A DNA stretch of 64,000 nucleotides, taken from the NCBI GenBank assembly GCA_964344965.1, contig CAYFPJ010000003.1, positions 22,280 through 86,279 on the forward strand, read 5' to 3'. Below are positions 10,956-39,085 of this stretch, piece after piece. The stretch comes from an uncultured Gammaproteobacteria bacterium (GTDB taxonomy: Bacteria; Patescibacteriota; Patescibacteriia; Magasanikbacterales; UBA922). How positions within the stretch are numbered: position 1 is the stretch's first letter; each line of letters begins with the position of its first letter. The position numbers were made by a program, and so were the translations under genes. A model generated the notes under the pieces. The model had not been told where the DNA came from, did not search any database, and was given only the letters and a program-made list of their open reading frames with translations.

Positions 10956-11102
10956 AATCTTAAAGTGGTTTTATTCCTCGATGCTTGCATCGAAAAGGTG
11001 AAGGCTGATATTGGCCGAAATAAATATTTACTGCCAATACCCCGTAGCTCTGCTACGGGGATGGCCAGATTAAATCTTACTTAAACCAAATTTACTTTTA
11101 TT
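10956..11102. repeat. 145-bp dispersed repeat, family A copy 1 (diverged copy)
   Basis: About 85-90% identical to copies at 11502-11646 and 38941-39085. The CCCCGYAGC..GCTRCGGGG hairpin is kept by compensatory substitutions. Confidence 0.8.
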
Positions 11103-11201
11103 CTTAAATTATTGAAATTATACCATGATTGACAAGTTTTGTAAATCTACATTAAAATATTAAAGTCCGATATAATTTTGTCTTTTTACCATCTGTATAA
11201 T

Positions 11202-11483
11202 TTATGTTTTAATATACTTTAAATCTTCTTCACTTATGCGAAAGCCTCCATTCTCTCCAATTCTTTTCTTAATATAATTTTCATAATCTTCATCTGTGAG
11301 TGCTTGTTTAGCAATTTTTTGAGCTTCATTTGCTATTACCATCATTGATTTTTCTTGAGCTGCTCTTGCAAAGGATCTGCCAAAGAGTCCTATATCAAGT
11401 CTGATCTGTGTTTCTCTATCTTTATAAAAATCAATACGTCTTTGGAGTTTTTGTTTTTCTTCGTCGTTTCTTGTTTTTTTCAT
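11202..11483 (-). CDS. hypothetical small protein (93 aa), charged/helical
   Basis: ORF only. Flanked on both sides by family A repeats. Confidence 0.35.
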   Translation of the reverse strand: MKKTRNDEEKQKLQRRIDFYKDRETQIRLDIGLFGRSFARAAQEKSMMVIANEAQKIAKQALTDEDYENYIKKRIGENGGFRISEEDLKYIKT

Positions 11484-11501
11484 TTTTGTATTTATTTTTT
11501 T

Positions 11502-11646
11502 AATCTTTAAGCGGTTTTATTCCTCGATGCTTGCATCGAAAAAGTGAAAACTAACATTGGTTGAAATAAGATTTTCTGCCAATACCCCGCAGCTTGCTGC
11601 GGGGATGGCCCGATGAAGTCTTACTTAAACCAAATTTACTTTTATT
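11502..11646. repeat. 145-bp dispersed repeat, family A copy 2
   Basis: Near-identical to 38941-39085. It overlaps the last 20 codons of the 473-aa ORF. Confidence 0.85.
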
Positions 11647-12972
11647 TTTTGTCGCACAATCGTCCAATTCAATCTTTAATATCTCTGCTAAGCCGTCGAT
11701 GCATGACTCAATGGTATCACATCTATGTGAAGGTGCTCCGCGTAATGTCCAGCCAAAATCTATTAATCCTTCTTCTAGTTCATATCTTTTATTATCAACG
11801 ACAGTTATATTTTCTTTTTCACCTACATAGCTTAACATTACCTCCTCCCCTGCCCTCAAAGCATCAAAAGCTCTCCTTTCGGTCAGGTCGAGTTTGAAAG
11901 GAGAATCATCAAAAATTTTCTCTCTCGCGCTTTGTTTTTGCTCATCACTAATCACGAAATTGTTTTTTATGATGTCTTCTGGAGAGACACGATCTCCTTT
12001 TTTTATTTTCCCATCGTGTTCAATTTCTAATTTGTAAAAATGAGAATCTGCTGTCTGTAGATAGACTGGCATGTCTTGCCTATTGGCGTAAACTGTCAAG
12101 TTGTGTGCGTGGGAAAGGACTTCTTCTCTGTCCTTGCCATACGTATCTGTTGCAATGGTAGTCCAAGTTGGATTTAAAAGATCTTCGTGCACATATATAC
12201 CAGCAATACTTGGATCAGATATGATAATTTCGTTGTAATCACCGTCTTGTTTTTGTGTGATTGCTGTTGATATTTCTTTTTCAATATCTTCGGGATCTAG
12301 GTATCCTGACATTCGTGCTGTTCCTCTGGCACTTGCACCTGCATCATGTCTATTTGCATTTTTTACTACACCGCCATTTAGTAAAACCCCCATTTTATAA
12401 AATGTTTTATCTTTGGTTTCCGGGTCATCTCTGACACTGCTAGTTGAAATTTCAGGGGCAAGTCCAATAAGTACAGAGAGCCGTTCTTTCCACGTTGCTT
12501 CTTTTAACATAACAGTATTTGCTCTTGTTTTAGTAGCTGCAAAGCCATGAGTCAAAAATATATTATATTTTTTGATTACTTCTTTTACATCGTATGTCTT
12601 ATGACTCTTTTCACGCTTTTCTGTGGTTAGAAGTTCAAGTTCAGACGCCATGACGTCTGTTCTATCCATTCCAGATGATACTCTTGTTACTTCATTAAAT
12701 TCTGTCTCTAATTCTAACAAGGTTTTTCTCTCTCTTTCAAGATCTTTAGATAGTTTGCGTATCTTAAAATAGTTTAATATTTCACCTAAAATTTTTATTT
12801 TTAATAGAGTAATCCTTTGCTCAAGATTTTCAATGTCCCTTCGTATTTGTTCAGAAAGTTTTTTGTCTCTTTCGTCTTTAGTATCTTTCCCTGTTCTCCC
12901 CATGACAGATTCCATACCATTTTTTAATTCTCTAGACGATATATGTGTATCTTGTGTAAGATTTTTATCCAT
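11551..12972 (-). CDS. hypothetical protein (473 aa): N-terminal coiled coil plus a globular C-terminal domain. Its C-terminal 20 aa are encoded by repeat A
   Basis: Long ORF immediately downstream of tgt (4-bp spacer), probably co-transcribed. No motif recognised. Confidence 0.45.
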   Translation of the reverse strand: MDKNLTQDTHISSRELKNGMESVMGRTGKDTKDERDKKLSEQIRRDIENLEQRITLLKIKILGEILNYFKIRKLSKDLERERKTLLELETEFNEVTRVSSGMDRTDVMASELELLTTEKREKSHKTYDVKEVIKKYNIFLTHGFAATKTRANTVMLKEATWKERLSVLIGLAPEISTSSVRDDPETKDKTFYKMGVLLNGGVVKNANRHDAGASARGTARMSGYLDPEDIEKEISTAITQKQDGDYNEIIISDPSIAGIYVHEDLLNPTWTTIATDTYGKDREEVLSHAHNLTVYANRQDMPVYLQTADSHFYKLEIEHDGKIKKGDRVSPEDIIKNNFVISDEQKQSAREKIFDDSPFKLDLTERRAFDALRAGEEVMLSYVGEKENITVVDNKRYELEEGLIDFGWTLRGAPSHRCDTIESCIDGLAEILKIELDDCATKNKSKFGLSKTSSGHPRSKLRGIGRKSYFNQC

Positions 12973-12978
12973 ATTATT

Positions 12979-14325
12979 TTATTGTGTCCACTCTTTCTTC
13001 ATTTCTAAAAATTTATTTTCTCGAATTTTTTCTCGGACCCTTTTCATCAAGTTTAACATAAAATGTAGATTGTGTATTGTGGCTAGTCTATAGGCGAGCA
13101 TTTCTCCTGCTTTGAACAGGTGATGGAGGTATTGACGAGAATGGTTTTGGCAAGTGAAGCAGGTGCAAGTTGGGTCGATTGGGTTGGGATCATTGCGGTG
13201 TTTTGTGTTGCGGATGTTGAGGGTATATTTTTTTTCTTTCAACGAAGAACCCCCCTTTATCCCCCCTACAAGGGGGGAAATATAGAGAGTACCATTTCTG
13301 GCGATGCGGGTGGGGGAGACGCAGTCGAACATGTCGACGCCGCGTTCGACAACTTCGAAGAGGTCTAGCGGAGAGTGTCCTACTCCCATAGTGTAGTGAG
13401 GTTTTTCTTTGGGAATTATAGGATTGACCCAGTCAAGGATTTGTTTGGTTGCCTCCATATTGTAACCAACACTTTCTCCACCAATGGCAATGCCATCAAA
13501 ATCAAGTGATGAAATGAATTTTGCGCTTTCTTCACGGAGATGTTTGTGATTGGCGCCTTGGATTATGCCAAAGAGAAATTTTTTATGAGTTGCAGACCCA
13601 AGAGACCCCTCCCGCACTCGCTTCGCTCGTGTCGACCTCCCCTCAGAGGGGAGGTTAACTCGCTGTAGTTTGGTATGTTCGATAAGACAGCGGCGAGCCC
13701 AGTCGTGAGTTCTTTCCATTGCTTTTTTTGTATATTTTTCATTAGCATCATCTGGGGTACATTCGTCAAAAGCCATGATGATGTCTGCTCCAATCTTGTG
13801 CTGTATATTTATTGCTTCTTCTGGAGTGAAGCGGTGTGTCGATCCGTCTATGTGGGAACGGAATGTGACACCGTCGTTGTCTATTTTGACTAGTTTTGTT
13901 TGATTGTTGGTTTGTGTTGGTGGGGTGTTACTCGATTCCAGCGAAGACCCCTCCCGCACTCGTTTCGCTCGTGTCGACCTCCCCTTATAGGGGGGGTTAT
14001 TTACTTGCTTTCTTACTTTTTCCTTACCAAGAGAGAACACCTGAAAGCCTCCTGAATCTGTTAGGACCGGCCGATCCCAGTTCATGAATTTATGGATTCC
14101 TCCAGAATCGGCAATTAGATTTTCTCCGGGTCGAAGATGAAGATGGTAAGTGTTGGCAAGAATGATTTGAGCGTCAATATTTTTCAAATCTTCGTTATCA
14201 AGAGATTTGACGGTGGCTTGGGTTCCGACTGGCATGAAGATCGGTGTTTCAACATCACCATGATCAGTATGGAGTATTCCTGTTCTTGCTAGACAGTTTT
14301 TTTCTTGATGTGTTATTTCAAACAT
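12979..14325 (-). CDS. tgt: queuine tRNA-ribosyltransferase, with three in-frame repeat-derived insertions (448 aa against ~370-385 typical)
   Basis: Tgt blocks FMPVGTQATVK, LTDSGGFQVFSL, IMAFDEC, GIAIGG, MFDCV and zinc site CxC..C are all present. Confidence 0.85.
   Translation of the reverse strand: MFEITHQEKNCLARTGILHTDHGDVETPIFMPVGTQATVKSLDNEDLKNIDAQIILANTYHLHLRPGENLIADSGGIHKFMNWDRPVLTDSGGFQVFSLGKEKVRKQVNNPPYKGRSTRAKRVREGSSLESSNTPPTQTNNQTKLVKIDNDGVTFRSHIDGSTHRFTPEEAINIQHKIGADIIMAFDECTPDDANEKYTKKAMERTHDWARRCLIEHTKLQRVNLPSEGRSTRAKRVREGSLGSATHKKFLFGIIQGANHKHLREESAKFISSLDFDGIAIGGESVGYNMEATKQILDWVNPIIPKEKPHYTMGVGHSPLDLFEVVERGVDMFDCVSPTRIARNGTLYISPLVGGIKGGSSLKEKKYTLNIRNTKHRNDPNPIDPTCTCFTCQNHSRQYLHHLFKAGEMLAYRLATIHNLHFMLNLMKRVREKIRENKFLEMKKEWTQ
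13246..13282. repeat. GC hairpin micro-repeat (CCCCCC-tacaa-GGGGGG) inserted in frame in tgt (encodes PLVGGIKGGSS)
   Basis: Same hairpin type as 49689-49709 and 37897-37917. Absent from the Tgt alignment recalled from memory. Confidence 0.6.
13604..13660. repeat. GC-rich palindromic element (agacccctcccgcactcg..gtcgacctcccct-cag-aggggagg) in frame in tgt (encodes SEGRSTRAKRVREGS)
   Basis: ~93% identical to 13944-14000. Related to the intergenic copies at 37979-38010 and 49789-49820. Confidence 0.7.
13944..14000. repeat. GC-rich palindromic element, second in-frame copy in tgt (encodes KGRSTRAKRVREGS)
   Basis: Direct sequence comparison with 13604-13660. Confidence 0.7.
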
Positions 14326-14502: not shown

Positions 14503-15315
14503 ATGAAGAGGAAAGATTACACTCTATTTAATCTACTTTGTCTATTTTTGATAGTATTTTTTGGTGTTGGTACATATTATGTTTGGCAAAATGGTGAGCC
14601 AATCGACTATACAAAGCAAGTGGCAGATGTCCCTACTATTGCTTATCAAGACAGTACTTTAGCATCTAAACACTTAAACACCTCAACACCTAATCAAGTC
14701 GGCACTTTGGACATTGATCAGCCTAACGAGATTAATACAGACAAAAGTTCTTTACCAACAGAAATAAATTTGGAGGTTCCATTTACATCTCAAGCACCAG
14801 AAAAAAATTGGGATCAGCCGTGGCAAGATGCCTGCGAGGAGGCGGCGGTACTTATGCTTGATGCTTATTATAATAATTATGGACTAAGTGTGTTGTCAGC
14901 CAAAGATGAAATTTTGAAAATGGTAAATTGGCAAGAAGAGCTTGGATGGGGAAGAAGTATCCCTATTGAGAAAGTAGAAAAGCTTGTCGAAGAGTTTAAG
15001 ACTCAAGATTTAAGATTTAAGATTATTACCAACCCCACTGTCCAAGAAATAAAAAGATATATTGCCAGTGGGCATCCTGTGCTAGCTGTCGCTTCTGGTA
15101 AAAAGCTACCTAATCCGCATTTCCGGAACGATGGGCCAGAATATCACGCTCTCATTATTCGTGGGTACACGGAAGATAGTTTTATTACCAATGACCCAGG
15201 TACTCAGTTTGGCAAAAATTTTCAATACAAGTATAATGATCTCATAAATGCCATCCACGATTGGAATGACGGAGACGTAGAATCTGGTCAGAGAGTCATA
15301 TTGGTGGCGGAGTGA
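14503..15315 (+). CDS. membrane-anchored C39-like (papain-fold) peptidase domain protein (putative)
   Basis: N-terminal TM. The QAPEKNWDQPWQDACEEAAVLML block resembles the Peptidase_C39_2 catalytic Cys region, and a His lies near the C-terminus. Confidence 0.4.
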   Translation: MKRKDYTLFNLLCLFLIVFFGVGTYYVWQNGEPIDYTKQVADVPTIAYQDSTLASKHLNTSTPNQVGTLDIDQPNEINTDKSSLPTEINLEVPFTSQAPEKNWDQPWQDACEEAAVLMLDAYYNNYGLSVLSAKDEILKMVNWQEELGWGRSIPIEKVEKLVEEFKTQDLRFKIITNPTVQEIKRYIASGHPVLAVASGKKLPNPHFRNDGPEYHALIIRGYTEDSFITNDPGTQFGKNFQYKYNDLINAIHDWNDGDVESGQRVILVAE

Positions 15316-18173: not shown

Positions 18174-19610
18174 TTGTTAATTTCAAAAAAATCTTCCTAC
18201 TTCGGAAGATTTTTTTGTTATCCATTACTATGTTATAATAAGCATAAATATATGCCAAAAAAACAAACCACATTTGATAAAGCCTACATTGTCACAGTAG
18301 ACATGGGTTATGGCCACCAAAGAGCAGTTCACCCTCTAAAGGATATTGCTGCTTGTCCTGTAGATTGGAAAGGTGTGGATATCATCACTGCCAATAATTA
18401 TGCTGGGATACCAAAGAGTGATCGTCGTAAATGGGAAAGCGGAAGGAAAATTTACGAGAAAATTTCTAGGATGAAAAAATTACCATTGATTGGTAAACAT
18501 ATTTTTGGAGTCATGGATCATATTCAAAGAATAGAACCATTTTACCCCAAAAGAGATCTTTCTAACCCTACATTGCAGGTCAAGCAGATTTATAAAATGA
18601 TAAAAGGGGGGTGGGGCAGGCACTTGATAGAGGAATTGAACAAAAATCCTTTACCTTATGTTACTTCTTTTTTTACCACTGCTTTTTTTGCAGAAGAACA
18701 TGGTTATAAAGGAGAAATATATTGTCTTTGCACTGACACAGATATCAGTAGAGCCTGGGTGCCAATCGATCCCAAGAAGAGTAGGATAAAATATTTTGCC
18801 CCCAACAAAAGAGTTAAGCATCGTCTTGAATTATATGGTGTGAGATCGAAAAATATTTTTATTACTGGTTTTCCTTTGCCAAAAGAGAATATTGGCCCTA
18901 AATTAAAAGTTTTGAAGGAAGATCTGGGGGCAAGAATTTGCAACCTTGATCCAGAAGGAAGATATCAAGAAAAGTATTCCGCAACTCTAAATCATTATCT
19001 GGGAAAGAAATATTGTGACGTCGCTATCCATCGCCCTTTGACCATTACCTTTGCTGTAGGTGGAGCAGGTGCCCAACGAGAAATCGGAGAGACTATCTTA
19101 AATAGTTTGCACAAATTGATTGTTAAGAAAAAAATAAAATTGAATCTCGTGGCTGGTTCTCGTAATGATGTCTATCGTTTTTATGAAGCAGTAGTCCGAT
19201 CACTTTGTTTGGAGAAGAGGTGTGGTGATTCAATAAACATAATTTATGACGAAGATAAAATAAAATATTTTTCTAAATTTAACCAAGCTTTACGCACGAC
19301 AGATATCTTATGGACCAAGCCCAGTGAGCTTTCTTTTTATGCAGGCTTGGCACTACCTATCATAATGGCACCAACAGTTGGTTCGCAGGAGGATTTCAAC
19401 AAACAATGGCTCATGTCAATTGGTGCTGGAGTTCCTCAGCCAGATCCTAAGTATACTCATGAATGGCTTCCTGATTGGCTTTCTTCTGGTTGGCTGGCAC
19501 AGGCTGCTGTAGAAGGTTTCTTGGATGCTCCTCGTAATGGTGCTTATCATATTGAAGATATAGTACTTCGAGGTAAGAAAAGTGAGATTGAGGATATGCA
19601 TCTTTTGTAA
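18174..19610 (+). CDS. GT-B glycosyltransferase, MGDG-synthase/MurG-like (putative); the likely start is 18252 (MPKKQ)
   Basis: VTVDMGYGHQRA resembles the GxGH N-terminal motif of GT28 enzymes. A later FAVGGAGAQ block also fits. Confidence 0.35.
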   Translation: MLISKKSSYFGRFFCYPLLCYNKHKYMPKKQTTFDKAYIVTVDMGYGHQRAVHPLKDIAACPVDWKGVDIITANNYAGIPKSDRRKWESGRKIYEKISRMKKLPLIGKHIFGVMDHIQRIEPFYPKRDLSNPTLQVKQIYKMIKGGWGRHLIEELNKNPLPYVTSFFTTAFFAEEHGYKGEIYCLCTDTDISRAWVPIDPKKSRIKYFAPNKRVKHRLELYGVRSKNIFITGFPLPKENIGPKLKVLKEDLGARICNLDPEGRYQEKYSATLNHYLGKKYCDVAIHRPLTITFAVGGAGAQREIGETILNSLHKLIVKKKIKLNLVAGSRNDVYRFYEAVVRSLCLEKRCGDSINIIYDEDKIKYFSKFNQALRTTDILWTKPSELSFYAGLALPIIMAPTVGSQEDFNKQWLMSIGAGVPQPDPKYTHEWLPDWLSSGWLAQAAVEGFLDAPRNGAYHIEDIVLRGKKSEIEDMHLL

Positions 19611-19639
19611 TTTTCAATTTGAAATTTACAATTTTTAAA

Positions 19640-20250
19640 CAATTTAAAATTTAAAGACCCCCCCGTGGGATTAAATCCCCAGCTTTTAGGCTGATCTTTC
19701 AAGTCCAGGCATCCTGTGATAGTATGTCCGTATATGAAATACGAAAGAAAATCCTCCCATACCATATACGATCATAAGTACCACATATGCTGGATTACCA
19801 AGTATCGCTACCAGGTACTAAAAGGTCAGGTTGCCATTAGATTACGTGAATTAATCAAACAAGTTTGTAAGCAACAAAGCGTTGAGATTATCGAGGGTCA
19901 CGTCCGCCCAGAACACGTCCACCTATTCGTCTCAGTACCTCCACACATCTCCATCAGCAAGCTGATGCAACTAGTCAAAGGACGAACAGGCAGAAAGATG
20001 CTCCAGGAATTTGAAGAGCTTCGCAAGCGATACTATGGCGGACACCTTTGGACAAGAGGATTCTACTCTGCCACTTCAGGTAATGTAACCGACGAAACCA
20101 TCCAACAATACGTACATAGCCAAGACAAGAAAGAAATGAAAGATGACGAAACATTCCAAGTAACAGAGTAATCGTACTTTAGTGTCATTCATGACAAATT
20201 CCCACAGATTCTTTCGGCTTTAGCCGATAGTGGTTCAAATTAAAATTAAA
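19640..20250 (+). mobile_element. IS200/IS605-family insertion sequence (tnpA only); boundaries approximate
   Basis: Y1/HUH transposase gene, with subterminal hairpin-capable sequences on both sides. Confidence 0.6.
19716..20171 (+). CDS. tnpA: IS200-type transposase TnpA (Y1 HUH); the likely true start is 19734 (MKYERK)
   Basis: HICWITKYRY, HVHLFVSVPP (HUH) and the catalytic YY...G region. ~140 aa. Confidence 0.85.
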   Translation: MIVCPYMKYERKSSHTIYDHKYHICWITKYRYQVLKGQVAIRLRELIKQVCKQQSVEIIEGHVRPEHVHLFVSVPPHISISKLMQLVKGRTGRKMLQEFEELRKRYYGGHLWTRGFYSATSGNVTDETIQQYVHSQDKKEMKDDETFQVTE

Positions 20251-20266
20251 AATTCCCAATTTTTTT

Positions 20267-21175
20267 ATGCTGTGGTTCTTCATAGCCCTATTAGGATATT
20301 TTTTTCTCGCTCTGACATTTATCCTCGACAAGCTAATCCTCACCAAGTCACTTGGTAAGCCGGTGGTCTATACTTTTTATTCCACCATTTTCATGTTTGG
20401 TGCTCTTTTAGCTCTACCTTTTGGAGTAGAATTTCTCAGTGGGATGGACTGGTGGTGGGCGATTGTTTCTGGGGTTGGGTTTGGTCTTGGTCTTTGGACT
20501 TTATTCAAGGCCGTGAAAATTGGGGAGGCCTCACATATCAATCCTTTTAATGGTGCTGTAGTGACAATTGTCACCTATCTTTTTTCCTCTCATTTTGTGG
20601 GAGAATCTCTCAGCAGCTTACAAATTTCTGGAATTGTTATTTTGATTTTTGCTTCACTCTTGCTGTCATTTGAAAAATCCAAAAAGCATAGTGGATTTCA
20701 TATTGGTTTTGTTTGGGCTATTATTTCGGGAATATTTTTTGCCATGTCCCACGTTAGTGCTAAGTATCTCTATGAACTATATCCATTCCTCACTGGTTTT
20801 GTATGGACGCGTGCTACTACTGGTCTAGTAGGACTTTTTGTTTTATTTTTTCCTTCGGTCCGGGCCACTTTGAAAAAGAAAGAACAAACCAAGAGATCAG
20901 AAAAAAAGAGAAAGAAAACTATCACTCTTGTTGTCAGCACAAAATTATTGGCAGTATTAGCAGTGATCTTGATTCAGTTTGCTGCTGCCATCGGTTCAGT
21001 TTCTCTTGTTATTGCTCTTAGCGGACTGCAGTACGCTCTCATGTTTGTCATGATTTACTTACTTACCAAGTTTGCTCCCAAAGTTTTCAAAGAATACTTT
21101 ACTAAACGTGAATTGACAGTGCAGTGGGTGGCAATTTTTCTTGTAGTTGTTGGTTCGGCGATGTTTGTATTGTAG
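20267..21175 (+). CDS. polytopic membrane protein (DMT/EamA-like, 10 TM) (putative)
   Basis: Hydrophobicity pattern only. Confidence 0.35.
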   Translation: MLWFFIALLGYFFLALTFILDKLILTKSLGKPVVYTFYSTIFMFGALLALPFGVEFLSGMDWWWAIVSGVGFGLGLWTLFKAVKIGEASHINPFNGAVVTIVTYLFSSHFVGESLSSLQISGIVILIFASLLLSFEKSKKHSGFHIGFVWAIISGIFFAMSHVSAKYLYELYPFLTGFVWTRATTGLVGLFVLFFPSVRATLKKKEQTKRSEKKRKKTITLVVSTKLLAVLAVILIQFAAAIGSVSLVIALSGLQYALMFVMIYLLTKFAPKVFKEYFTKRELTVQWVAIFLVVVGSAMFVL

Positions 21176-21203
21176 GAATTATGAATCAGGAATTATGAAT
21201 TAT
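21176..21203. repeat. left inverted repeat (ggaattatgaatcaggaattatgaatta) of the pair bracketing the four-helix-bundle gene
   Basis: It is the reverse complement of 21574-21601. A third related copy lies at 35112-35139. Confidence 0.6.
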
Positions 21204-21578
21204 TATGGAGGAAAAATTAAAAGTTTTACAGACCTACATGCTTGGAAGGAGGGTCATAGACTTGTTCTTATGATTTATGAAAGTGTTAAGTTTTTTCCAA
21301 AAGAAGAATTGTTTGGTCTCGTTAGTCAAATGAAAAGAAGTTCAGTTTCTGTGACATCAAATATTTCTGAGGGATTTAGTAGAAGTTCTTATAAAGATAA
21401 ATTAAGGTTTTACTTTATGTCACTTTCTTCGATTAGTGAACTGCAAAATCAAATTTTGATAGCTCGAGATGTGGGATATATCACTACAAAAAAATTTCAA
21501 GAATTAGCAACACAAAGTATAAAAGTACACAAAATAACTAATGGCTTGATAAAGAAAACAAAAACATATATATCATAA
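21195..21578 (+). CDS. four-helix-bundle protein (TIGR02436-like, the 23S rRNA intervening-sequence protein family)
   Basis: FTDLHAWKEGHRLVLMIYE...SQMKRSSVSVTSNISEGFSR is the family signature. AGGA RBS upstream of the ATG at 21195. Confidence 0.65.
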   Translation: MNYYGGKIKSFTDLHAWKEGHRLVLMIYESVKFFPKEELFGLVSQMKRSSVSVTSNISEGFSRSSYKDKLRFYFMSLSSISELQNQILIARDVGYITTKKFQELATQSIKVHKITNGLIKKTKTYIS

Positions 21579-21601
21579 TTCCTTATTCCTGATTCATAAT
21601 T
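21574..21601. repeat. right inverted repeat (ataattccttattcctgattcataattc)
   Basis: Seen directly. Confidence 0.6.
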
Positions 21602-21606
21602 CTTTT

Positions 21607-26529: not shown

Positions 26530-29500
26530 ATGAAAAAAAGATACTTTGAGAGGGTGAAAAAAGCGATTAGCAGCTTTCTGGTATTTTCGATGTTGCTTCT
26601 TACTGCTGGTCCAGCAGTAGTAAGTGCGGCCACTAGTTTGGTGACCTATACTTTGCCAGATGTGACAATCGATCTCAGTGAAGGTGATAGCGATGTCACT
26701 ATACCTCTGACTGTCGAAGGATTTGAAGATATTTTGGGCGGACAATTATCTATAAATTACGACAGCACAGTTTTGGATTTTTCAGAAAATACTGATGAAG
26801 CAGTGCTAGGCCTAACTATCACAGATGGTGATGGTGTCTTGACTTTGGTCTGGGGTGATTTGGTGAATTTGGAAACTTCCACTATCGTTGATGGTGGTGT
26901 ACTTACCAATCTCGTCTTTGATATTCTTGGTGAAGATGGTGATAGTACTGAATTGGGAATAGTAGATCCACTTGCTTCTGTCGCAACACAACCTTTTCCA
27001 GATGCTCCAGAAATAATTTTACCAAGTGCTATTGCTACTGCTTCTGTAGACGGATCAGTTGTTTTGGAAGATAGTACTCTTGGTGCAGATGATATAGAGC
27101 AAGTTTCTTTGACATTTACCAACTTGAATGACAACGACGAAATTGAGCTCGGCGACACTCTTCAGTTTACAATGCAGTTTATGGTAGAGGATGGGCAAGG
27201 AGGATTTGTATACATCCCTGCTGAATTGCCTTTTCCAGATGGGATCGGTCTTAAGCTAACAAATTTCACTGAAGGTGTGACCAAGGTGTTGGATATGTCT
27301 TCCTCTCTTACTTTGGATTCTGACGTGTTTTCATATCTACTTGGATTAGATGATGATGGCTCTGACCTTACAATTGGTGAATATCGTGTTAGTCTCACTG
27401 GTACCCAGTCTGGTAATTTTCTTGCAGGTACGTTTAATTTGATCATCGATGAACCCCCTTATCCAGTAAGTAGTTTTCCAGAAGATGGTTCAATTGATGT
27501 CTTGATTGATAGCGAGCTGTATATTGATTTTTCTGAAGCAGTTGACACTTCTACTGTAGATTCAGACTCAGTTCAATTGCGACCGTTCTCAGATACCAAT
27601 GGTGATGATAAGGTTTCTGTAAGTTTTGAGTTTGAAGAAGGTGATACTAGAGTTGTTTTGGGATTAGGCGAAGTTTTGGATTATGATACCCAATACTACT
27701 TTTTTGTCGGTAGTACTGTAGAAGATCTCAAAGGTAATAGTGTGGGGACAGAAAATGCTTGGTATGGGTCTGATAAAGAAGATCATGAGTTCACTACCAT
27801 AAGTGAGCCAGATGTGATTGCTCCTGTAGGCACTGTTAGTTATTCTACAGAAGACGCCACCAATGATGATGTGGTGGCTACACTTAGCCTAGATGACCCA
27901 GAAGCAATAGTGACCAATAACAATGGATTATTCACATACACATTCACAGAAAACGGCTCCTTCACATTTGAGTTTGAAGACTTGGCTGGAAACAGTGCCA
28001 CTGCTGTTGCTGAAGTCAATAATATTGATAAAGTTGCTCCAGTTATTACTTTGAACGGGGAATCTGAGATCACTCTTGTTTTGGGGGCTACATATGTAGA
28101 GGAGGGGGCCACAGCTGCGGATGATGTCTTTTTGGGAGAGATGGAGATAGACATTGGTGGTGATGTGGTTGATACAGACATAATTGGAACTTATATTGTT
28201 ACATACAATACTTCTGATAATGCAGGAAATAATGCTGAAGAAGTGACTAGAACAGTTAATGTGGTAGAAGCGTTTCCAATCGGAGACCTTGAGCTTCTTT
28301 CTCCTGATCAAGTTTATCCTGGAGAAGATGTGATTGTGCAGACAGCCTATGATTTTTCAGGACAGGGTAATTATACCGTTTTCGATGACGGATCGTTCAT
28401 TGTGAAGGTGTTTGGTCAGGATGAATTTGGGGAGTATACCGAAGAGATATCAGCTGTTGTGTCTAACTATAGTAATCCCATAAATTTTGATTTTATAGGA
28501 AAACAATTTGTCGTTTCTGAAGATCTCTTTGATCCTGGAATGTACAAAGTATCTCTTATCAAAATCGATGGTCAAGTAGAAAACGACGCTGTATATTTTG
28601 AAGTTTTAGAACCACTCCCAATTGGTGAACTAGAGCTCTTGTCTTCTGCAGAGGTATTTTATGGTGAAGATATCGAACTTCTTACTTCTTATGATTTCAC
28701 AGAACAAGGAAATTATTCACCTGCTCATGACGGATCTTTCACTATTGAGGTATTCGGTCAAGATGAATTTGATGAGTACACAGAAGAGGTATTGATTGAT
28801 ATTTTTGTAAATGGTGGTCCAGGAGAAAGAGCGTTTACTGTTACTGAAGACCTCTTCGACCCTGGCATGTACAAAGTTTCTTTGGTTCAGAATGTTACTA
28901 ACATAGAAAACGACTCTGTATATTTTGAAGTTTTGGAGCCACTGCCTATCGGTGATTTGGAAATGCTATCTCCTGCCGAGTTGGAATATGGTGAAGACGT
29001 CGAACTTCTTACTTCTTATGACTTTGCTCAGCAAGGAAATTATTCACCTTCCCACGATGGCTCGTTTACCCTCAAGGTATTCGGTCAAGATGGTACTGGT
29101 GAATACACAGAAGAAGTGTCGGTTGATATATTCATAAATGGTGGTGCGGGAGAAAAAGGATTTACAGTAACAGAAGATCTATTTGATCCTGGTATGTACA
29201 AAGTTTCTCTTATTCAAATCAGTGGTCAGGTAGAAAATGATGCTGTGTATTTTGAAGTTGTTGACGACATTGCTCCTATTGGAACTATTACTTACTCTAC
29301 TACTGAGCTTACCAATCAAGATGTGGTAGCAACTCTTAGTGCAAATGAAGATATTATTATCACAAACAATGAGGGTTCGGATACATACACATTCACAGAA
29401 AATGATAATTTTGTATTCAAATTTGAAGATCTAGCTGGAAACACTGCTACGGCAATTGCTGAGGTGAATAATATTGATAAAGTTGCCCCAGTAATTGTAT

Positions 29501-31179
29501 TTAGTGATGGTACTGGAAATGATGTTACTCTTGAAGCTGGAGTAGATAGTTTTGATCCAGAAACTCAGACAGATGCCACTGACGACGCTTCTGACGTAAG
29601 TGTGTCTGTCTCTGGTTCTGTAGACACAAATGTCCTCGGTGACTATGAGATAACATATACTGCAGAAGACGGAGCTGGAAATACAGCAACTCTTGTCCAG
29701 ACTGTTCATGTGGTTGATACTATAGATCCTGTTGTCACATTGAATGGAGATTCAGAAGTTACCATTACAACTGGTGATGACTATGAAGAATTGGGTGCTA
29801 CAGCGATAGATAGCTTTGAGGGCGATCTCGATGTGACAATTACTTTGCCAGACGATTTTGATACTGACACTGCAGGGGTTTATGAAATAACTTATAGTGC
29901 AGAAGATTCTACTGGTAATAGAACTCAGGTAGTCAGAACTGTAACTGTAGAAGATCCTGACACAGAGGCTCCTGTTATTACACTGAACGGTGAATCTTCT
30001 ATTACTCTGACTGTGGGAGATACTTATACAGAAGAAGGTGCCACAGCCGCTGATAACCGTGACACTGTAGAAGTGATAATTGGTGGTGATACTGTCGATA
30101 CTTCCACTGTCGGTGTCTACATTGTGACTTACAATGCAACTGACGAATCTGGTAATGTAGCTGACGAAGTTACCAGGACAGTAACTGTAGAAGCCGCTCC
30201 AACTCCAGTTTCATCTGGCGGTGGGGGAGGTGGAGGTGGTCCTATTACCAAAGCTTATAAGCCGGCTGATTTAGGGATTGATTTTCTAGAAGATACTCTT
30301 GATTTGGAAGCTGATAATGTAGAGTTACAACTCTCAGCAGACAGCAAAGCTAGCCAAATGGCTATCAGTGAAAATGAAAATTTCAGTGGTGTAATCTGGC
30401 AAGATTTCTCAGAGTCATTGACTTGGGATTTGGAAGACGGAGTGAGTGGTGATGTGACAGTATATGCCAAGTTCAGAACTGGTAAAGGGGAAGTAAGCAG
30501 TGTTGTTTCAGATACTATTACAATCAATCCATTCGTACCACAAGTTTTGGGTGAGAAGATTACTGATTGTCCTCTAGACATTGGTAGTGCTTACAAGCAT
30601 CCTGGACATAGTGGTGTCTGGTTTATTACCACCGATGAATTTGATGCAGAGAATACCAGCTGTGCTCGCCGAGCTTTCAAGAATGCAGATATTTATGATT
30701 CATATGGCTTGGTGCGTTGGAGTGATGTCAATGTGGTCTCTCAATCAGAATTGGAAGAAGTCGTAGAGCACACCATTCCATTCATCGAATGGGGGACTGA
30801 ACGTACTTATCTTCACGGAGATTTGGTGAAGACTCCAAGTGATAGTAAGGTCTATATGCTTCTAGATGGTAAGAAGCATCCAATATCCTCTGGAGAAGTG
30901 TTCAAGGATCTTGGTCTAGAGTGGAGCTCTATCGTCGATGTATCCAGTGATGTTCTTGTGAGTTATCCTACAGGATCAGAGATCGATGGTATTGGTTCTC
31001 TGCCAGAAGGAACACTTTTCATGTACGAAGGTGCTCCAGAAGTATATAAGCTAGAAGATGGTAAGCAAAGAAAGATAAAGGATACTACAGCATTCAAAGC
31101 AAATGGATTTAGCTGGGCTGGTGTAGTAGTTCTCCCTGCTGATCATACACCATTTACAACTGGTGAAGAGATTCAGTAA
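26530..31179 (+). CDS. very large secreted surface protein (1549 aa) with DUF5011/Ig-like domains and three internal ~110-aa tandem repeats
   Basis: Signal peptide. Repeated TLNGxSxxTxxxGxxYxExGATAxD blocks (DUF5011-like). Poly-Gly linker. Confidence 0.65.
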   Translation: MKKRYFERVKKAISSFLVFSMLLLTAGPAVVSAATSLVTYTLPDVTIDLSEGDSDVTIPLTVEGFEDILGGQLSINYDSTVLDFSENTDEAVLGLTITDGDGVLTLVWGDLVNLETSTIVDGGVLTNLVFDILGEDGDSTELGIVDPLASVATQPFPDAPEIILPSAIATASVDGSVVLEDSTLGADDIEQVSLTFTNLNDNDEIELGDTLQFTMQFMVEDGQGGFVYIPAELPFPDGIGLKLTNFTEGVTKVLDMSSSLTLDSDVFSYLLGLDDDGSDLTIGEYRVSLTGTQSGNFLAGTFNLIIDEPPYPVSSFPEDGSIDVLIDSELYIDFSEAVDTSTVDSDSVQLRPFSDTNGDDKVSVSFEFEEGDTRVVLGLGEVLDYDTQYYFFVGSTVEDLKGNSVGTENAWYGSDKEDHEFTTISEPDVIAPVGTVSYSTEDATNDDVVATLSLDDPEAIVTNNNGLFTYTFTENGSFTFEFEDLAGNSATAVAEVNNIDKVAPVITLNGESEITLVLGATYVEEGATAADDVFLGEMEIDIGGDVVDTDIIGTYIVTYNTSDNAGNNAEEVTRTVNVVEAFPIGDLELLSPDQVYPGEDVIVQTAYDFSGQGNYTVFDDGSFIVKVFGQDEFGEYTEEISAVVSNYSNPINFDFIGKQFVVSEDLFDPGMYKVSLIKIDGQVENDAVYFEVLEPLPIGELELLSSAEVFYGEDIELLTSYDFTEQGNYSPAHDGSFTIEVFGQDEFDEYTEEVLIDIFVNGGPGERAFTVTEDLFDPGMYKVSLVQNVTNIENDSVYFEVLEPLPIGDLEMLSPAELEYGEDVELLTSYDFAQQGNYSPSHDGSFTLKVFGQDGTGEYTEEVSVDIFINGGAGEKGFTVTEDLFDPGMYKVSLIQISGQVENDAVYFEVVDDIAPIGTITYSTTELTNQDVVATLSANEDIIITNNEGSDTYTFTENDNFVFKFEDLAGNTATAIAEVNNIDKVAPVIVFSDGTGNDVTLEAGVDSFDPETQTDATDDASDVSVSVSGSVDTNVLGDYEITYTAEDGAGNTATLVQTVHVVDTIDPVVTLNGDSEVTITTGDDYEELGATAIDSFEGDLDVTITLPDDFDTDTAGVYEITYSAEDSTGNRTQVVRTVTVEDPDTEAPVITLNGESSITLTVGDTYTEEGATAADNRDTVEVIIGGDTVDTSTVGVYIVTYNATDESGNVADEVTRTVTVEAAPTPVSSGGGGGGGGPITKAYKPADLGIDFLEDTLDLEADNVELQLSADSKASQMAISENENFSGVIWQDFSESLTWDLEDGVSGDVTVYAKFRTGKGEVSSVVSDTITINPFVPQVLGEKITDCPLDIGSAYKHPGHSGVWFITTDEFDAENTSCARRAFKNADIYDSYGLVRWSDVNVVSQSELEEVVEHTIPFIEWGTERTYLHGDLVKTPSDSKVYMLLDGKKHPISSGEVFKDLGLEWSSIVDVSSDVLVSYPTGSEIDGIGSLPEGTLFMYEGAPEVYKLEDGKQRKIKDTTAFKANGFSWAGVVVLPADHTPFTTGEEIQ
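28270..29262 (+). repeat. three tandem ~325-bp intragenic repeats (units beginning PIGxLExLSx...)
   Basis: Units 28270-28610, 28611-28939 and 28940-29262 are ~75-85% identical at the protein level. Confidence 0.7.
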
Positions 31180-34105: not shown

Positions 34106-34140
34106 GTAATGCTTAGTAATGCTAATGACACGAATATTGT

Positions 34141-35107: not shown

Positions 35108-35165
35108 TAATCATAATTCTTTATTCCTGATTCATTATTCTACATTCCAAATTCTACATTCAAAA

Positions 35166-35759
35166 TCACTCAATCACCTTATCCACCAATCCATATTTCA
35201 CCGCCTCTTTGGCAGTCATGAAGTGATCACGATCAGCATCTTGTTCCACTTTTTCAACACTCTGACCACTGTGTTTTGCAAGAATGGTATTCAATCTTTT
35301 TTTCATTTTGACAATTCTTTCGGCATGGATCTGAATATCACTAGCTTGACCCTGAGTGCCGCCCATCACTTGGTGGATCATCACCTCACTATTTGGTAGA
35401 CAAAATCTCTTGCCTTTTTCACCAGCAGCGAGGAGGACAGAGCCCATGCTAGCTGCCATGCCGACACAGATGGTCGAGACATGAGGCTTGATATATTGCA
35501 TGGTATCGTAGATAGCCATACCAGCAGTGACAGAACCTCCTGGAGAATTTATATAGAGCTTGATATCTTTGTCTGGGTCTTGGTTTTCGAGGAAGAGAAA
35601 CTGAGCAATGATGGTATTGGCCACACTGTCGTTTATGGCTGTGCCTAGGAAAATAATCCTGTCTTTCAAGAGACGAGAATAGATATCATAGGCTCGCTCA
35701 CCATGGGTAGATTTTTCGATTACAGTGGGGATGAGGTATTGGGAAGTTGGGGTTGTCAT
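35166..35759 (-). CDS. clpP: ATP-dependent Clp protease proteolytic subunit
   Basis: Catalytic Ser block GMAASMGS, His block MIHQ, and [12 protein letters not shown]. Confidence 0.9.
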
Positions 35760-36044
35760 AGTAATATTGTTAATTTATGAAGGGTATTTTAGCAGAAAAT
35801 ATGGGGTTTGTGAATAGGGAATAAATTGTTAAATGGTCAAATTGTTGTATTGCTGTATTGTTGGTTTATCTTTGGTAATTCTCTCAAAGAGGGCTGTTTT
35901 TTCTACTACTATTGACTAAGTGGTAGTTTTTATGTATACTTGGGGCGATTTATTTAGGAAATTGCTAAATAGTTATATTGTTGTAGGACTGTCATATTCT
36001 GAATAAAACAGTGTAACAATTTAACAATATAACAATTTTAAAAT

Positions 36045-36524
36045 ATGAACTTCGAAGGAATTTATGAAAAAACAATTGTCATCGTCAAACCAGATGGAGT
36101 CCAGCGTGGTTTGGTGGGGGAAGTTACTAAACGCCTAGAGACCAAGGGTCTCAAAGTGGTAGGCCTCAAGATGATGATCCTCAGTGAAGACAAACTTCGC
36201 GAACATTATGCTCATCATGTTGAAAAACCTTTTTATCCAGGACTAGAGAAATTTATGCGCTCTTGCCCAGTAGCAGTAATTTGCGTAGAGGGTAAAGGAG
36301 CAGTGGATGCAGTTCGTCTGGTTGCTGGCGTTACTCATGCTGGTCAAGCAGACGGTGGTACGATCCGTGGTGATCTGGCTATGGGAATGTGTAATGTTGT
36401 GCATTGCTCTGATTCAGTAGACTCTGCCAAAGCTGAGGTAGCTAGATTTTTTGAAGAATCAGAAATCTTTGACTACGATAAGACTGACTACTTGCATGTG
36501 TATATGGATGATGAGAGGGAATAA
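36045..36524 (+). CDS. ndk: nucleoside diphosphate kinase
   Basis: TIVIVKPDGVQRGLVGEV, active-site His block NVVHCSDS. ~150 aa. Confidence 0.9.
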   Translation: MNFEGIYEKTIVIVKPDGVQRGLVGEVTKRLETKGLKVVGLKMMILSEDKLREHYAHHVEKPFYPGLEKFMRSCPVAVICVEGKGAVDAVRLVAGVTHAGQADGGTIRGDLAMGMCNVVHCSDSVDSAKAEVARFFEESEIFDYDKTDYLHVYMDDERE

Positions 36525-36541
36525 AATTTACCAATGATACT

Positions 36542-36572
36542 AAAAACTCCTGCTGATTGTGGGAGTTTTTTT
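36542..36572 (+). terminator. terminator ACTCC-tgctgattgtg-GGAGT plus T-run; a near-identical copy lies at 37856-37887
   Basis: Seen directly. Confidence 0.55.
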
Positions 36573-36579
36573 ACTACCA

Positions 36580-36696
36580 CGCAACCCACCTCCTGTCCTC
36601 CTCCCTTAAAAAAGGAGGAGGAACTTGCTGAATAGTAAATACTTATTAGAACGTCCTCCCTCCCTAATAAGGGAGGGAGACAGAGGGTGGGTTGCG
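36580..36696. repeat. composite palindromic element, family B copy 2 (inverted orientation relative to copy 1)
   Basis: cgcaacccacc...ggtgggttgcg outer stem with CCTCCTCCC/GGAGGAGG and CCTCCCTCCC/GGGAGGGAG inner hairpins. Confidence 0.7.
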
Positions 36697-36800
36697 TGAT
36701 AGCATCAAAATCCCTTGCAACACCCTCTTCTCCATGTGGACAACTTTCTTGACAGTACTATCCTATAGGTCTAAACTAAAAATAGATTATATTAATCAAT

Positions 36801-36974
36801 ATGTTTAATTTCACACATATCACAAACCTCTTTATTAACTCCCTTATTAAGGACTGTGGTTTTGTTTTGCCAGTAGGTGTGGTGAATACAGCCAATACAG
36901 TGGTATATCTGGGAGGAGAGGGGTGTGGATGTGGACAAAATTGTAATTGCGAGGGGGGCTGCAATTGCGGTTAA
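36801..36974 (+). CDS. small Cys/Gly-rich protein, 57 aa (MFNFTHITNLFINSLIKDCGFVLPVGVVNTANTVVYLGGEGCGCGQNCNCEGGCNCG); the ORF track omitted it because it is under 60 aa
   Basis: Hand translation. A terminator hairpin follows immediately (36991-37022). The C-terminal 20 residues contain 7 Cys in CxC/GC motifs. Confidence 0.35.
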   Translation: MFNFTHITNLFINSLIKDCGFVLPVGVVNTANTVVYLGGEGCGCGQNCNCEGGCNCG

Positions 36975-37544
36975 CTAGGTTCAAATAGCATTACACATCC
37001 CGGTAAAATGGGATGTTTTTTATTAGAGATTAAGTACATTTGTAGATAATAGCAGGAACCCTCTCCCCTCGGCCTGAGCTCGGGACGAAGGCCAACTCCC
37101 CCTACTAGGGGGAGGGAAATATCGGATGATCGAGGTTTGCAAGGCTGATTAAGCTATGTAGACCTTGGTTACTTCGGTAGCCTAACCTATTGACAAATGA
37201 CCTGGATACTGGTAAGTATTCAGCAAGGTTGTGGGATTTTTAAGGAATGTTGGTCTGATATTCCTTTGAAATTTCTATAACCTTTGAATCATTTGTCATT
37301 TCCCCTCGTTCTTTCCAAGGAGAAATAAGCAGCATATGAATGCACATGTTCCCCACAAACGGTGGATTAGGCGTTGATGATTTCAAGCCGGGCGGAGGTC
37401 TTTGGTAGATTATTATAATAATCTCTAAAGATCACCGTCTGGCCGAGAAATTTTTCAAAGCCGGGCACCTTGGGGCCTCGCCCCGAAACCTAAGGGGTCA
37501 TCTCGGCCCCGCATTCGGGGCATTCGCTCCAAGGAGAGAGGTCC

Positions 37545-37829
37545 ATGACCTCCGACTTCAGCACCACCACCGCCACCACCGCCACCACCGCCACGGATCC
37601 AGTGGATCCGAGAGAGACCGCCGACCCTGACACCGTCAGGGGATGGAGATCCTGGTCCGCCTCAACCGAGGAGGGAGCCGGCGTCGCCGGCAGCGGTCTT
37701 GGCCCAGCTAGGGTCGTGGTAGGGGTGGGGGAGCGTGTGAGTTCCCCGAGATGTAGGTCGTTCGCGACCTGTCTATCTCGGGCGTCATTTCGTATGCTGC
37801 CCCACCTCTCTTGTTCATTTAAGTTTTAA
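37545..37829 (+). CDS. small ORF in a ~400-bp GC-rich patch (94 aa, starts MTSDFSTTTATTATTATDPVDP); doubtful
   Basis: Strong SD AAGGAGAG 6 nt before the ATG. Contains an (ACCACCGCC)x3 microsatellite. GC content is far above background. Confidence 0.2.
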   Translation: MTSDFSTTTATTATTATDPVDPRETADPDTVRGWRSWSASTEEGAGVAGSGLGPARVVVGVGERVSSPRCRSFATCLSRASFRMLPHLSCSFKF

Positions 37830-38077
37830 GTGGGTAGAAGAGGCGGATGATTTTGAAAGACTCCTACTGATTGTGGGAGTTTTTTGTATGAAAAAATTCT
37901 CCCCCTCTTAGGGGGAGTTAGAGGAGGTTCGTTGTAATGAGATTATCTGTCATTATGTCAGTCTTATAAAATTGGTATGCACCCCTCCCAGCCTCCCCTA
38001 AAAGGGGAGGAGATATTTTGTCTTGTTAAAAAACACAATTTGAAAACACCCCTCATCTCTGATAAAGTATTCACTAT

Positions 38078-38941
38078 ATGAATCATGACCTCTTCAAACC
38101 AACTCATCTCAAAGAACTCTGTCAAAAATACGATCTCACGCCATCGAAAAAATATGGACAAAACTACTTGATCTCTGACGCTCCGATCAAAAAAATGATT
38201 GAGGCAGCTGACGTAAAAAAGACCGATATTATAGTAGAGATCGGTCCAGGTTTTGGAGTGCTTACTTTTGCTCTAGCAGAAGGAGCGGGTAAAGTTTTCA
38301 CATTTGAGATAGAAAGGAAACTAGAAGAGTATTGGGATGATGTTTTGGGAGATGGAGACAAGGAGATAAGTAGAGATAATAATATAGAGATAATTTGGGG
38401 CAATGCTTTGAAAAGTCTTAAATCTTATGTCTTAAATCTTAAGTCTGGATACAAAGTGATTGCAAACTTGCCATACCAGATTACTTCCAATGCTTTGAGG
38501 ATAATTTTGGAGGCAGAAAATAAGCCAGAATCTGTGACTGTGATGGTCCAGAAGGAGGTGGCAGAAAGAATTGTGGCGAAGCCAGGGGATATGAGCCTAC
38601 TTGCTGTTTCAGTGCAATATTATGGTGGACCAAAGATTGTTTGTAAGGTTCCGAGTGGATCATTTTGGCCTAGTCCGAAAGTGGATTCAGCGGTATTGTA
38701 TATAGACACCTCAACACCTAAACACTTTAACACTTTTTCTGATGATGATTTTTTTAAAGTTGTGCGGGCGGGATTTGCAAATAAGCGCAAACAACTGTGG
38801 CGAAATATTAGTGATGGATTGAAGATTGATAGGGGAGAGGTGAAAGAAGTCTTGAAGAATGTCGTTGGTAATGAAAAAGCACGAGCGCAGGAATTGAGTG
38901 TAGAGGAATGGAGAGAGGTGGTATCGACACTAAATAGTTAA
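38078..38941 (+). CDS. rsmA: 16S rRNA (adenine1518/1519-N6)-dimethyltransferase
   Basis: YGQNYLISDAPIKKMIEAA, SAM-binding VEIGPGFGVLT, and NLPYQITS. Confidence 0.85.
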   Translation: MNHDLFKPTHLKELCQKYDLTPSKKYGQNYLISDAPIKKMIEAADVKKTDIIVEIGPGFGVLTFALAEGAGKVFTFEIERKLEEYWDDVLGDGDKEISRDNNIEIIWGNALKSLKSYVLNLKSGYKVIANLPYQITSNALRIILEAENKPESVTVMVQKEVAERIVAKPGDMSLLAVSVQYYGGPKIVCKVPSGSFWPSPKVDSAVLYIDTSTPKHFNTFSDDDFFKVVRAGFANKRKQLWRNISDGLKIDRGEVKEVLKNVVGNEKARAQELSVEEWREVVSTLNS

Positions 38942-39085
38942 ATCTTTAAGCGGTTTTATTCCTCGATGCTTGCATCGAAAAAGTGAAAACTAACATTGGT
39001 TGAAATAAGATTTTCTGCCAATACCCCGCAGCTTGCTGCGGGGATGGCCCGATGAAGTCTTACTTAAACCAAATTTACTTTTATT
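38941..39085. repeat. 145-bp dispersed repeat, family A copy 3 (abuts the rsmA stop codon)
   Basis: Near-identical to 11502-11646. Confidence 0.85.

Follow-up and report, generated by a model that had tools for sequence, protein, structure and literature searches.

A near-identical, hairpin-bearing repeat at gene ends in a Candidatus Magasanikbacteria genome is probably a recently amplified, non-autonomous element

Three copies of a hairpin-rich repeat of about 148 nt lie between or at the ends of genes in a 64-kb stretch of contig CAYFPJ010000003.1 (the window), which raises the question of whether the repeat is mobile DNA, a structural element maintained by its host, an RNA gene or a recombination site. 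The host is a member of Candidatus Magasanikbacteria (candidate phyla radiation (CPR)/Patescibacteria), as placed by RsmA homologues. The repeat is probably a lineage-specific, recently amplified, non-autonomous interspersed non-coding element that is passively co-transcribed with its neighbours. This reading of recent spread is drawn because near-identical copies are present at unrelated loci and the repeat is missing from the nearest relatives. A preliminary description of the sequence had proposed a miniature inverted-repeat transposable element (MITE), an element resembling repetitive extragenic palindromes (REPs) or a small-RNA gene; the interspersed repeat stands, whereas the defining features of a classical MITE or of a REP with its associated transposase are missing and a small-RNA gene is without support.

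The three copies, already recognised in the preliminary description, are all found on the + strand by direct reading, alignment, a repeat finder, nhmmer and a covariance model (R1): c1 at 10953-11102, c2 at 11499-11646 and c3 at 38938-39085. The right ends are those given previously, whereas alignment places the left ends 3 nt further left. Relative to c2, which serves as the reference copy, c3 is the same at 147 of 148 positions, so that the near-identity reported for these two copies holds; c1 is diverged, with 131 of 148 aligned positions the same (~88%) and two single-base indels. Three further copies are located outside the window, all in the same metagenome (PRJEB17505), and the total for the genome is at least six. 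One occupies positions 1-124 of contig L029, approximately 2.7 kb past the right end of the window and on the window + strand, and two are found on the 609-bp contig L022, one at either end. These extra copies have 123-124 of ~124 bases in common with c2, and five of the at least six copies are 99-100% identical to one another (over ~124 nt for the extra ones). All four copies on the contig (three in the window and that of L029) are on one absolute strand, which has a positive GC skew. A chance origin is ruled out because the length and the identity of the repeat are too high, and the hairpin pattern of the preliminary description has no match in 100 shuffles.

The same multiplicity is visible in the assemblies. 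The MEGAHIT k127 contigs of PRJEB17505 stop inside the repeat at all copies except the diverged c1; contigs L003, L005 and L025 end ~124 nt into the repeat at c2 and c3, and one 27.5-kb contig runs exactly from c2 to c3. Contig breaks of this kind are the behaviour expected of a multi-copy exact repeat, and the element fragments the short-read assemblies of its host organism. Contigs of a metagenome-assembled genome (MAG) can be mis-joined at repeats, and short-read assemblies break at this one, which could be taken to mean that the copies are an assembly artefact or the product of chimeric joining. That explanation is scarcely credible, as independent assemblies (ENA MEGAHIT and Logan) of at least four sequencing runs repeat each flank junction over ~124 nt, and contig L025 is continuous through c1. 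Proteins identical to those of the window are found in the ENA and Logan assemblies of PRJEB17505, as well as in an NCBI MAG that has contigs of 92,042 and 75,391 bp.

The distribution of the repeat is narrow. The nearest relatives, with RsmA proteins that are 71-72% identical, keep the order of rsmA, a TSP3-repeat protein gene and a giant-protein gene together with the terminator-promoter block downstream of rsmA, and their orthologous rsmA spacer is without the repeat. In these relatives (L012 and L015), the spacer between rsmA and the block is filled with TAAACACC-type 8-mers where the window has the repeat; 8-nt tandem repeats of this type are also present in the window at 14659-14708 and 38703-38736. 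Approximately 35 kb of the relatives' DNA contains zero copies by nhmmer --max or model R1. An exact 20-mer (CCTCGATGCTTGCATCGAAA) was scanned against IMG/VR, the GTDB species-representative genomes (596 Gb) and JGI metagenomes, and no true copy was found; the six matches all contain hairpin 1 (described below) only, with two of the six (L001 and L008) additionally containing its 5' flank. Other blocks of the repeat have no match in IMG/VR, and BLAST searches of PLSDB plasmids and INPHARED phages give no match.

The peptide of 31 residues that the repeat encodes was additionally searched against 1.84 billion representative proteins, with two clear matches only: P0121, which is the 473-aa open reading frame (ORF) of the window, and P0122, which is identical at 31/31 residues (E about 1e-11 to 1e-12). 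The third match, P0123 (E = 8e-4), is an unrelated repetitive protein, and P0124, a longer cluster-mate of P0122, led to contig L022. Nothing relevant was found in the literature on MITEs or repeats of CPR bacteria or on the project accession. As far as these sequence comparisons go, the family is undescribed, with no match in any library searched.

The unit consists of a ~40-nt 5' module that contains hairpin 1, a ~105-nt imperfect palindrome and three more bases. Hairpin 1, TCGATG-CTTG-CATCGA (RNA UCGAUG-CUUG-CAUCGA), is located on the + strand at 11524-11539 in c2, 10978-10993 in c1 and 38963-38978 in c3; no copy departs from this sequence, in agreement with the preliminary description, and the 30-nt block around it (unit positions 15-44) is unchanged throughout. 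The palindrome occupies unit positions 42-145 (+ strand; 11540-11643 in c2, 10994-11099 in c1 and 38979-39082 in c3), and that of c2 has a 74% match to its own reverse complement. Its tip, 42 nt from the right end of the unit, is the GC-rich, CUUG-capped hairpin 2, which is CCCCGCAG-CTTG-CTGCGGGG in c2 (RNA CCCCGCAG-CUUG-CUGCGGGG; 11585-11604, +), with its equivalent in c3 at 39024-39043 (+), and CCCCGTAGC-TCT-GCTACGGGG in c1 (11040-11060, +). The CCCCGCAGC/GCTGCGGGG hairpin of c1 is indeed retained relative to c2: a single base pair has changed on both sides in a compensatory manner (C-G to T-A), and the loop is 1 nt longer through an insertion. Both hairpins carry the common core CG-NN-GCTTGC-NN-CG, which suggests that one ligand may serve both.

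Conservation within the unit is weighted toward its ends. Copies c1 and c2 are fully identical at unit positions 15-44 and 121-148, and only three of their differences fall outside the interior. The 3' end is a conserved stretch of 28 nt (...TCTTACTTAAACCAAATTTACTTTTATT), and the right boundary is sharp, as the base after ...ACTTTTATT is different in each of four copies (C, T, G or A). On the left, the terminal (T)TAAATCTTTAAG is embedded in T-rich DNA. The long hairpin is flanked by an A-tract and a U-tract. Stops are present in five of the six frames, and the sixth is open for 31 codons only.

The repeat furnishes three stop codons at the gene ends where it lies. The last 31 codons and the stop of the 473-aa ORF (11551-11646, minus strand; NKSKFGLSKTSSGHPRSKLRGIGRKSYFNQC*) are entirely encoded by c2, instead of the 20 codons first attributed to the repeat. 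The stop codon of rsmA (TAA, 38939-38941, +) had been described as abutting c3; the contact is correct, with the codon lying within the first four bases of the copy, and RsmA is full-length relative to its homologues despite this position. The third stop is found in L022, where a fragment of an EamA/DMT gene is placed between the two copies. This fragment spans only positions ~43-165 of the ~285-position DMT/EamA profiles, with both gene ends missing, and its final 31 residues are encoded by the repeat, read here in the frame that also gives the 473-aa ORF its tail. At c1, 14 codons that read out of the repeat (10949-10990, minus strand) give a 124-aa ORF a spurious N-terminal extension, as had been suspected: an independent gene call on ENA contig L025 places the real start of a 110-aa gene at the ATG at 10948, 5 nt off the left end of c1.

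Three minus-strand ORFs of 473, 93 and 110 aa (10616-12972), all read in one direction, are set apart by c1 and c2. None of them has a match in Pfam, NCBIfam, PHROG or PADLOC, and they are enclosed by two queuosine genes, tgt and that of a Vut_1/YhhQ-family transporter; the three ORFs may make up an inserted segment. A tandem segmental duplication as the source of c1 and c2 is ruled out, as the neighbouring 93-aa and 110-aa proteins are unrelated. Copy c3 is sense to rsmA and c1 and c2 are antisense to the minus-strand genes, which bears out the earlier observation of both orientations relative to flanking transcription, although the absolute strand is the same for all. The left end faces the start of an outward-transcribed gene in four of the five assessable copies (at 5, 15, 14 and ~300 nt); five cases are too few for this pattern to be significant, and short spacers favour close abutment anyway. 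Downstream of c3 are an unrelated palindrome of 75 nt, a canonical terminator and a promoter. This near-perfect palindrome (39085-39159) has 34-nt arms that are 88% complementary and directly adjoins c3 on the right; it occurs once in the window and lies outside the repeat family.

A stable predicted structure, with z-scores against shuffled controls of -4.9 on the + strand and -6.9 on the - strand, is among the features that would be expected of a multi-copy structured small-RNA gene or of a cis-acting 5' leader RNA. In the leader version the repeat would be read on the minus strand and lie just ahead of start codons, at a distance of 5 nt in c1, 15 nt in c2 and 14 nt in a copy of L022, and the left end is indeed 5-15 nt from start codons in three of the five assessable copies. 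A strong match to a sigma-70-like promoter (TTTACA-17-TGnTATAAT; 11117-11145, minus strand), which is a consensus match alone, is located just outside the right end of c1; transcription from this site would read through c1 antisense and make c1 the 5' leader of the 110-aa gene. Besides the stable structure and the proximity to start codons, points in favour of an RNA are the CUUG tetraloops of both + strand hairpins, two pairs at which c1 has compensatory changes relative to the other copies, and the similarity (~80%) of the 5' module to an intergenic repeat of two Flavobacteria, the L008 copy of which is just upstream of the start of a GTPase gene.

However, an RNA gene or leader is unlikely in view of the covariation and annotation results. 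The covarying stems of the preliminary description do not hold up: on the + strand, the three window copies exhibit two double-sided changes (93/103 C-G to U-A and 78/119 U-G to A-U) in addition to one or two one-sided changes and two disrupted pairs, and on the - strand one compensatory change and five disruptions. The covariation over these copies is not significant (65/500 shuffles reach the observed level), and the covarying stems amount to anecdote because both double changes come from the single diverged copy c1. The two strands have approximately equal folding energies under RNA or DNA parameters, with three G-U pairs each, and neither G-U asymmetry nor the RNA or DNA folding energy discriminates between them. 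At gathering thresholds, Rfam identifies only two tRNAs in the whole window and no family on the repeat; at E <= 10 no match is centred on any copy, and a weak STnc340 match (E = 7) overlaps part of c1. A hammerhead or other ribozyme is ruled out by the lack of an Rfam match and by core motifs that do not fit.

Transcription signals give the same result. The scan for intrinsic terminators flags the repeat on neither strand, and the sequence that follows hairpin 2 (AUGGCCCG on the + strand and UAUUGGCAG on the - strand) has no terminator-like U-tract, so that the earlier argument against a simple terminator is sustained. No promoter common to the copies is present upstream, and no terminator is present at the copies. 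In addition, c3 lies downstream of rsmA in the opposite sense, the distribution of the repeat is extremely narrow, and ORFs read through it. Nothing tested shows a structured RNA gene, and the small-RNA-gene reading is without support.

The flavobacterial similarity is best described separately. The intergenic regions L001 1809-1912 and L008 5380-5500, from two unrelated loci, have a repeat of ~85 nt in common (TTTAATCCTACCAGTGGGTTAATTCCTCGATGCTTGCATCGAAAT...), the first ~43 nt of which are ~80% identical to the 5' module (CCTACCAGTGGGTT-AAT-CCTCGATGCTTGCATCGAAAT), with 16-19 of the ~23-25 bases outside the seeded 20-mer being the same. Model R1 gives scores of 29.6 and 40.8 bits on these two regions. 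The similarity is biased upward because the loci were selected by an exact 20-mer match, and it may be due to chance, to convergence on a stable G-CUUG-C hairpin or to distant homology.

If the repeat is mobile, its ends and the enzymes available should be considered. The right end, AAATTTACTTTTATT, does not match the left end, TTAAATCTTTAAGCGG, in inverted form, so that no terminal inverted repeats are present; the palindrome is internal and leaves an asymmetric 5' module of 40 nt. The sole transposase in the window is a Y1 tnpA of the IS200 type (19734-20171), 8 kb from the repeat. Its protein reaches 147.5 bits with the IS200 model NF033573, but only 42 bits with NF047646 (REP_Tyr_transpos), for which the cut-off is 80. 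The corresponding IS200-type element extends over 19600-20270, with candidate left-end (LE) and right-end (RE) hairpins CAGCTTTTAGGCTG (~19679) and CGGCTTTAGCCG (~20213); no alignment was found between these and the hairpins of the repeat, TCGATGCTTGCATCGA and CCCCGCAGCTTGCTGCGGGG. On present evidence, the non-matching ends rule out the resident IS200 as the mobiliser. The IS200 tnpA is single-locus in the samples, and the element assembles as an isolated 620-bp contig (L033) in one of them, which suggests that its flanks vary within the population.

Pfam scans and annotations, which cover most of the ORFs of the window, reveal no integrase or further transposase, and no parent insertion sequence with matching ends is present in the 64-kb window or in the ~3 kb of genome beyond it. 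The possibility that c2 and c3 are the attL and attR sites of a 27-kb island is ruled out by the further copies and by the housekeeping genes tgt, clpP and ndk in between.

A comparison with known families places the repeat within a broad class but in no single member of it. As for a classical MITE derived from a DDE transposase, the repeat is small, non-coding and multi-copy, whereas the terminal inverted repeats and target-site duplications of such an element are missing. The palindrome-associated transposable elements (PATEs) and the REP doublets forming hairpins (REPINs) that depend on Y1/HUH enzymes are closer: they are likewise small and non-coding, without terminal inverted repeats or target-site duplications and with conserved hairpins, and the common hairpin core, the placement of four contig copies on one strand and the Y1 gene 8 kb away are compatible with them. 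The repeat differs from PATEs in that it has no relation to the resident IS200 in hairpins or flanks, without the subterminal LE/RE resemblance, in that hairpin 2, at 42 nt from the right end, is not subterminal, and in that no conserved target tetranucleotide is seen among these few copies. It differs from REPs and REPINs with their REP-associated tyrosine transposases (RAYTs) in that the Y1 protein of the window scores as IS200 and is under the RAYT cut-off (42 vs 80 bits), and in that the gene at 19734-20171 has flanks without significant similarity to the repeat. Compared with a REP doublet, the repeat has an imperfect hairpin of 105 nt, the arms of which are not recognisable REP units. 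A RAYT/REPIN system is ruled out by the Y1 score and the unflanked gene.

The Correia elements of Neisseria and the RUP elements of pneumococcus share with the repeat a length of 100-155 bp, multiple copies and intergenic or gene-end sites, and they are co-transcribed, form a long RNA hairpin and can furnish gene ends. They differ in having terminal inverted repeats and TA target duplications; the repeat has neither, and it has the asymmetric 40-nt 5' module. The ERIC/IRU sequences of enterobacteria (ERIC ~127 nt) are also imperfect palindromes in transcribed spacers in either orientation, and the BOX elements of pneumococcus have a modular build as well; the spread mechanism of ERIC and BOX is likewise unknown. 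Both are unrelated in sequence and lineage, and the copies of the present repeat are near-identical within a single lineage, which points to recent spread rather than to conserved elements of long standing. The Rickettsia palindromic elements (RPEs) are small-genome repeats that become part of ORFs, as here, but RPEs are in-frame within genes and translated through, whereas the repeat gives C-terminal tails and stops only.

The order of repeat and ORFs additionally recalls integrons, in which the repeat would be an attC-like recombination site bounding small gene cassettes. The arrangement repeat-ORF-repeat occurs twice, as 473-aa ORF/repeat/93-aa ORF/repeat/110-aa ORF in the window and as repeat/EamA fragment/repeat in L022, and the window ORFs are cassette-like in having no database match and in being inserted between tgt and the transporter gene. 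The size and imperfect dyad symmetry of the repeat resemble the VCR-type attC sites of Vibrio, which are imperfect palindromes of ~120-150 nt between small ORFs of unknown function. However, the ends of the palindrome, the base of which is AAAAGTGAAA/TTTACTTTT, do not contain the RYYYAAC and GTTRRRY core sites, and the sole near match to an attC core is an internal GTTAGTT with a single mismatch. No integrase or tyrosine recombinase is present among the ORFs scanned or annotated with Pfam (most of those of the window), c3 is in the opposite orientation and follows the housekeeping gene rsmA, so that orientation is inconsistent, and one of the "cassettes" is an internal gene fragment. A recombination site of this kind is very unlikely, and the attC/integron reading was rejected because there are no core sites and no integrase among the ORFs covered.

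Several observations weigh against recent spread of a mobile repeat. No precise empty site was recovered, the relatives being too diverged for exact insertion boundaries. There is no target-site duplication, as the flanks of c1, c2 and c3 contain no consistent direct repeat, and no conserved target motif is evident, the left flanks of these few copies all being T-rich and ending in TT. The left boundary is blurred in that c2 and two of the extra copies (c5 and c6) have ~12-18 further low-complexity bases in common, which leaves an uncertainty of a few to ~18 nt. No transposase is tied to the repeat; the flanks and hairpins of the TnpA gene at 19734-20171 share nothing with it. The placement of 4/4 copies on one strand is not significant (p ~0.125), the copy number of at least six is a lower bound, and gene conversion could also yield the near-identity of the copies.

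Gene conversion is part of another explanation, in which the repeat is a structural or regulatory element of the ERIC/REP/BOX type that is maintained by the host, does not transpose and has its copies homogenised. Such an element would act as a long mRNA hairpin with a role in transcript stabilisation, in cleavage by RNase III or in the insulation of adjacent genes, or as a protein-binding DNA site. The position of the copies always between genes or at gene ends, in transcribed spacers and in both senses relative to transcription, is consistent with this role, as are the strong fold on both strands, the A-tract and U-tract around the long hairpin, the RNase III gene in the window (1325-2065) and the absence of a linked target-site duplication, terminal inverted repeat or transposase. 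It is nevertheless rather unlikely: the orthologous spacer of the nearest relatives is without the repeat, no copy is found in the public collections searched, five copies are 99-100% identical, two copies surround an internal gene fragment and ORFs run into the repeat. These features have the look of recent invasion and damage and not of a conserved host function.

The most likely reading is thus that of a small mobile DNA repeat of an ordinary sort, within the broad MITE/REP/ERIC/PATE class. As a recently amplified element, it would have spread to several intergenic or gene-end sites, and its movement may depend on an enzyme acting in trans, for which the conserved end modules and the hairpins would be the recognition sites. 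A single-strand route of the HUH/Y1 type, similar to that of IS200/IS605-derived PATEs or of REPINs, would fit better than the cut-and-paste of a DDE-type MITE because there are no terminal inverted repeats or target-site duplications, the two hairpins are related and the strand orientation is uniform. Once in place, the repeat would be transcribed only within neighbouring mRNAs, in either sense. With an RNase III gene present, the long hairpin could alter the processing or stability of these mRNAs, which would be a by-product and not a dedicated function. A broader proposal is that CPR bacteria and Flavobacteria share an undescribed hairpin-bearing family, the single-stranded DNA of which would be mobilised by an HUH-type enzyme not yet recognised. 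Members that land in genes would bring stop codons at one end and possibly, at the other, A-rich start contexts (AUG/UUG-AAAAAA), by which gene fragments would stay expressed; this proposal we regard as quite unlikely.

Other repeats are present in the window. The tgt ORF (12979-14325, minus strand) contains two GC-rich palindromic repeats of 55 nt that are 93% identical (13603-13657 and 13945-13999). Both are in-frame, and each contributes a peptide (...RSTRAKRVREGS...) to a Tgt ORF of 448 aa that is apparently lengthened and still open; these inserts are an RPE-like intragenic insertion. A second repeat family of 129 nt, 99% identical between its copies, is found at 57579-57707 and 62364-62492 and also at both ends of L030. 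Its ends are perfect terminal inverted repeats of 18 bp (AACGAGTAGTGTGAATTA...TAATTCACACTACTCGTT), breaks of ENA contigs fall within it, and its two window copies bracket a CotH-domain gene and a 242-aa gene; this family looks like a classical MITE. Long palindromic repeats rich in GGGAGG/CCCTCC, with arms of 48-57 nt, are located in opposite orientations at 6776-6902 and 36566-36710, and short hairpins related to them (CCTCCCCTAAAAGGGGAGG) recur at other sites, such as 37992-38010.

A gene for a 23S-rRNA-intervening-sequence protein (a bAvd-like four-helix bundle; 21147-21578) is bracketed by inverted 31-nt repeats (ATCATAATTCCTTATTCCTGATTCATAATTC), which are located at 21176-21206, 21572-21602 and 35110-35140. 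A gene of the same family is inserted between the TSP3-repeat and giant-protein genes in the relative L012, and the bAvd-like gene family seems to move around. Tandem repeats of 327 nt (109 codons; 70-77% identical) at 28479-29264, inside a 1549-aa ORF (26530-31179), are probably a repeated protein domain.

Genomes of CPR/Patescibacteria, at ~1 Mb, are usually regarded as streamlined. The 64-kb window nonetheless holds a number of separate repeat families, of which one or more have been amplified recently. The phenomenon itself is ordinary, although small mobile repeats of CPR bacteria are little described, and it would raise a new question in biology only if an enzyme dedicated to its mobilisation or a discrete RNA product turned up. 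In this organism the repeat has remodelled gene ends, with three stops, a C-terminal tail of 31 residues and one bracketed gene fragment. In Magasanikbacteria MAGs it accounts for broken contigs and for ORFs with spurious extensions, and it could be a marker of strain-level insertion polymorphism.

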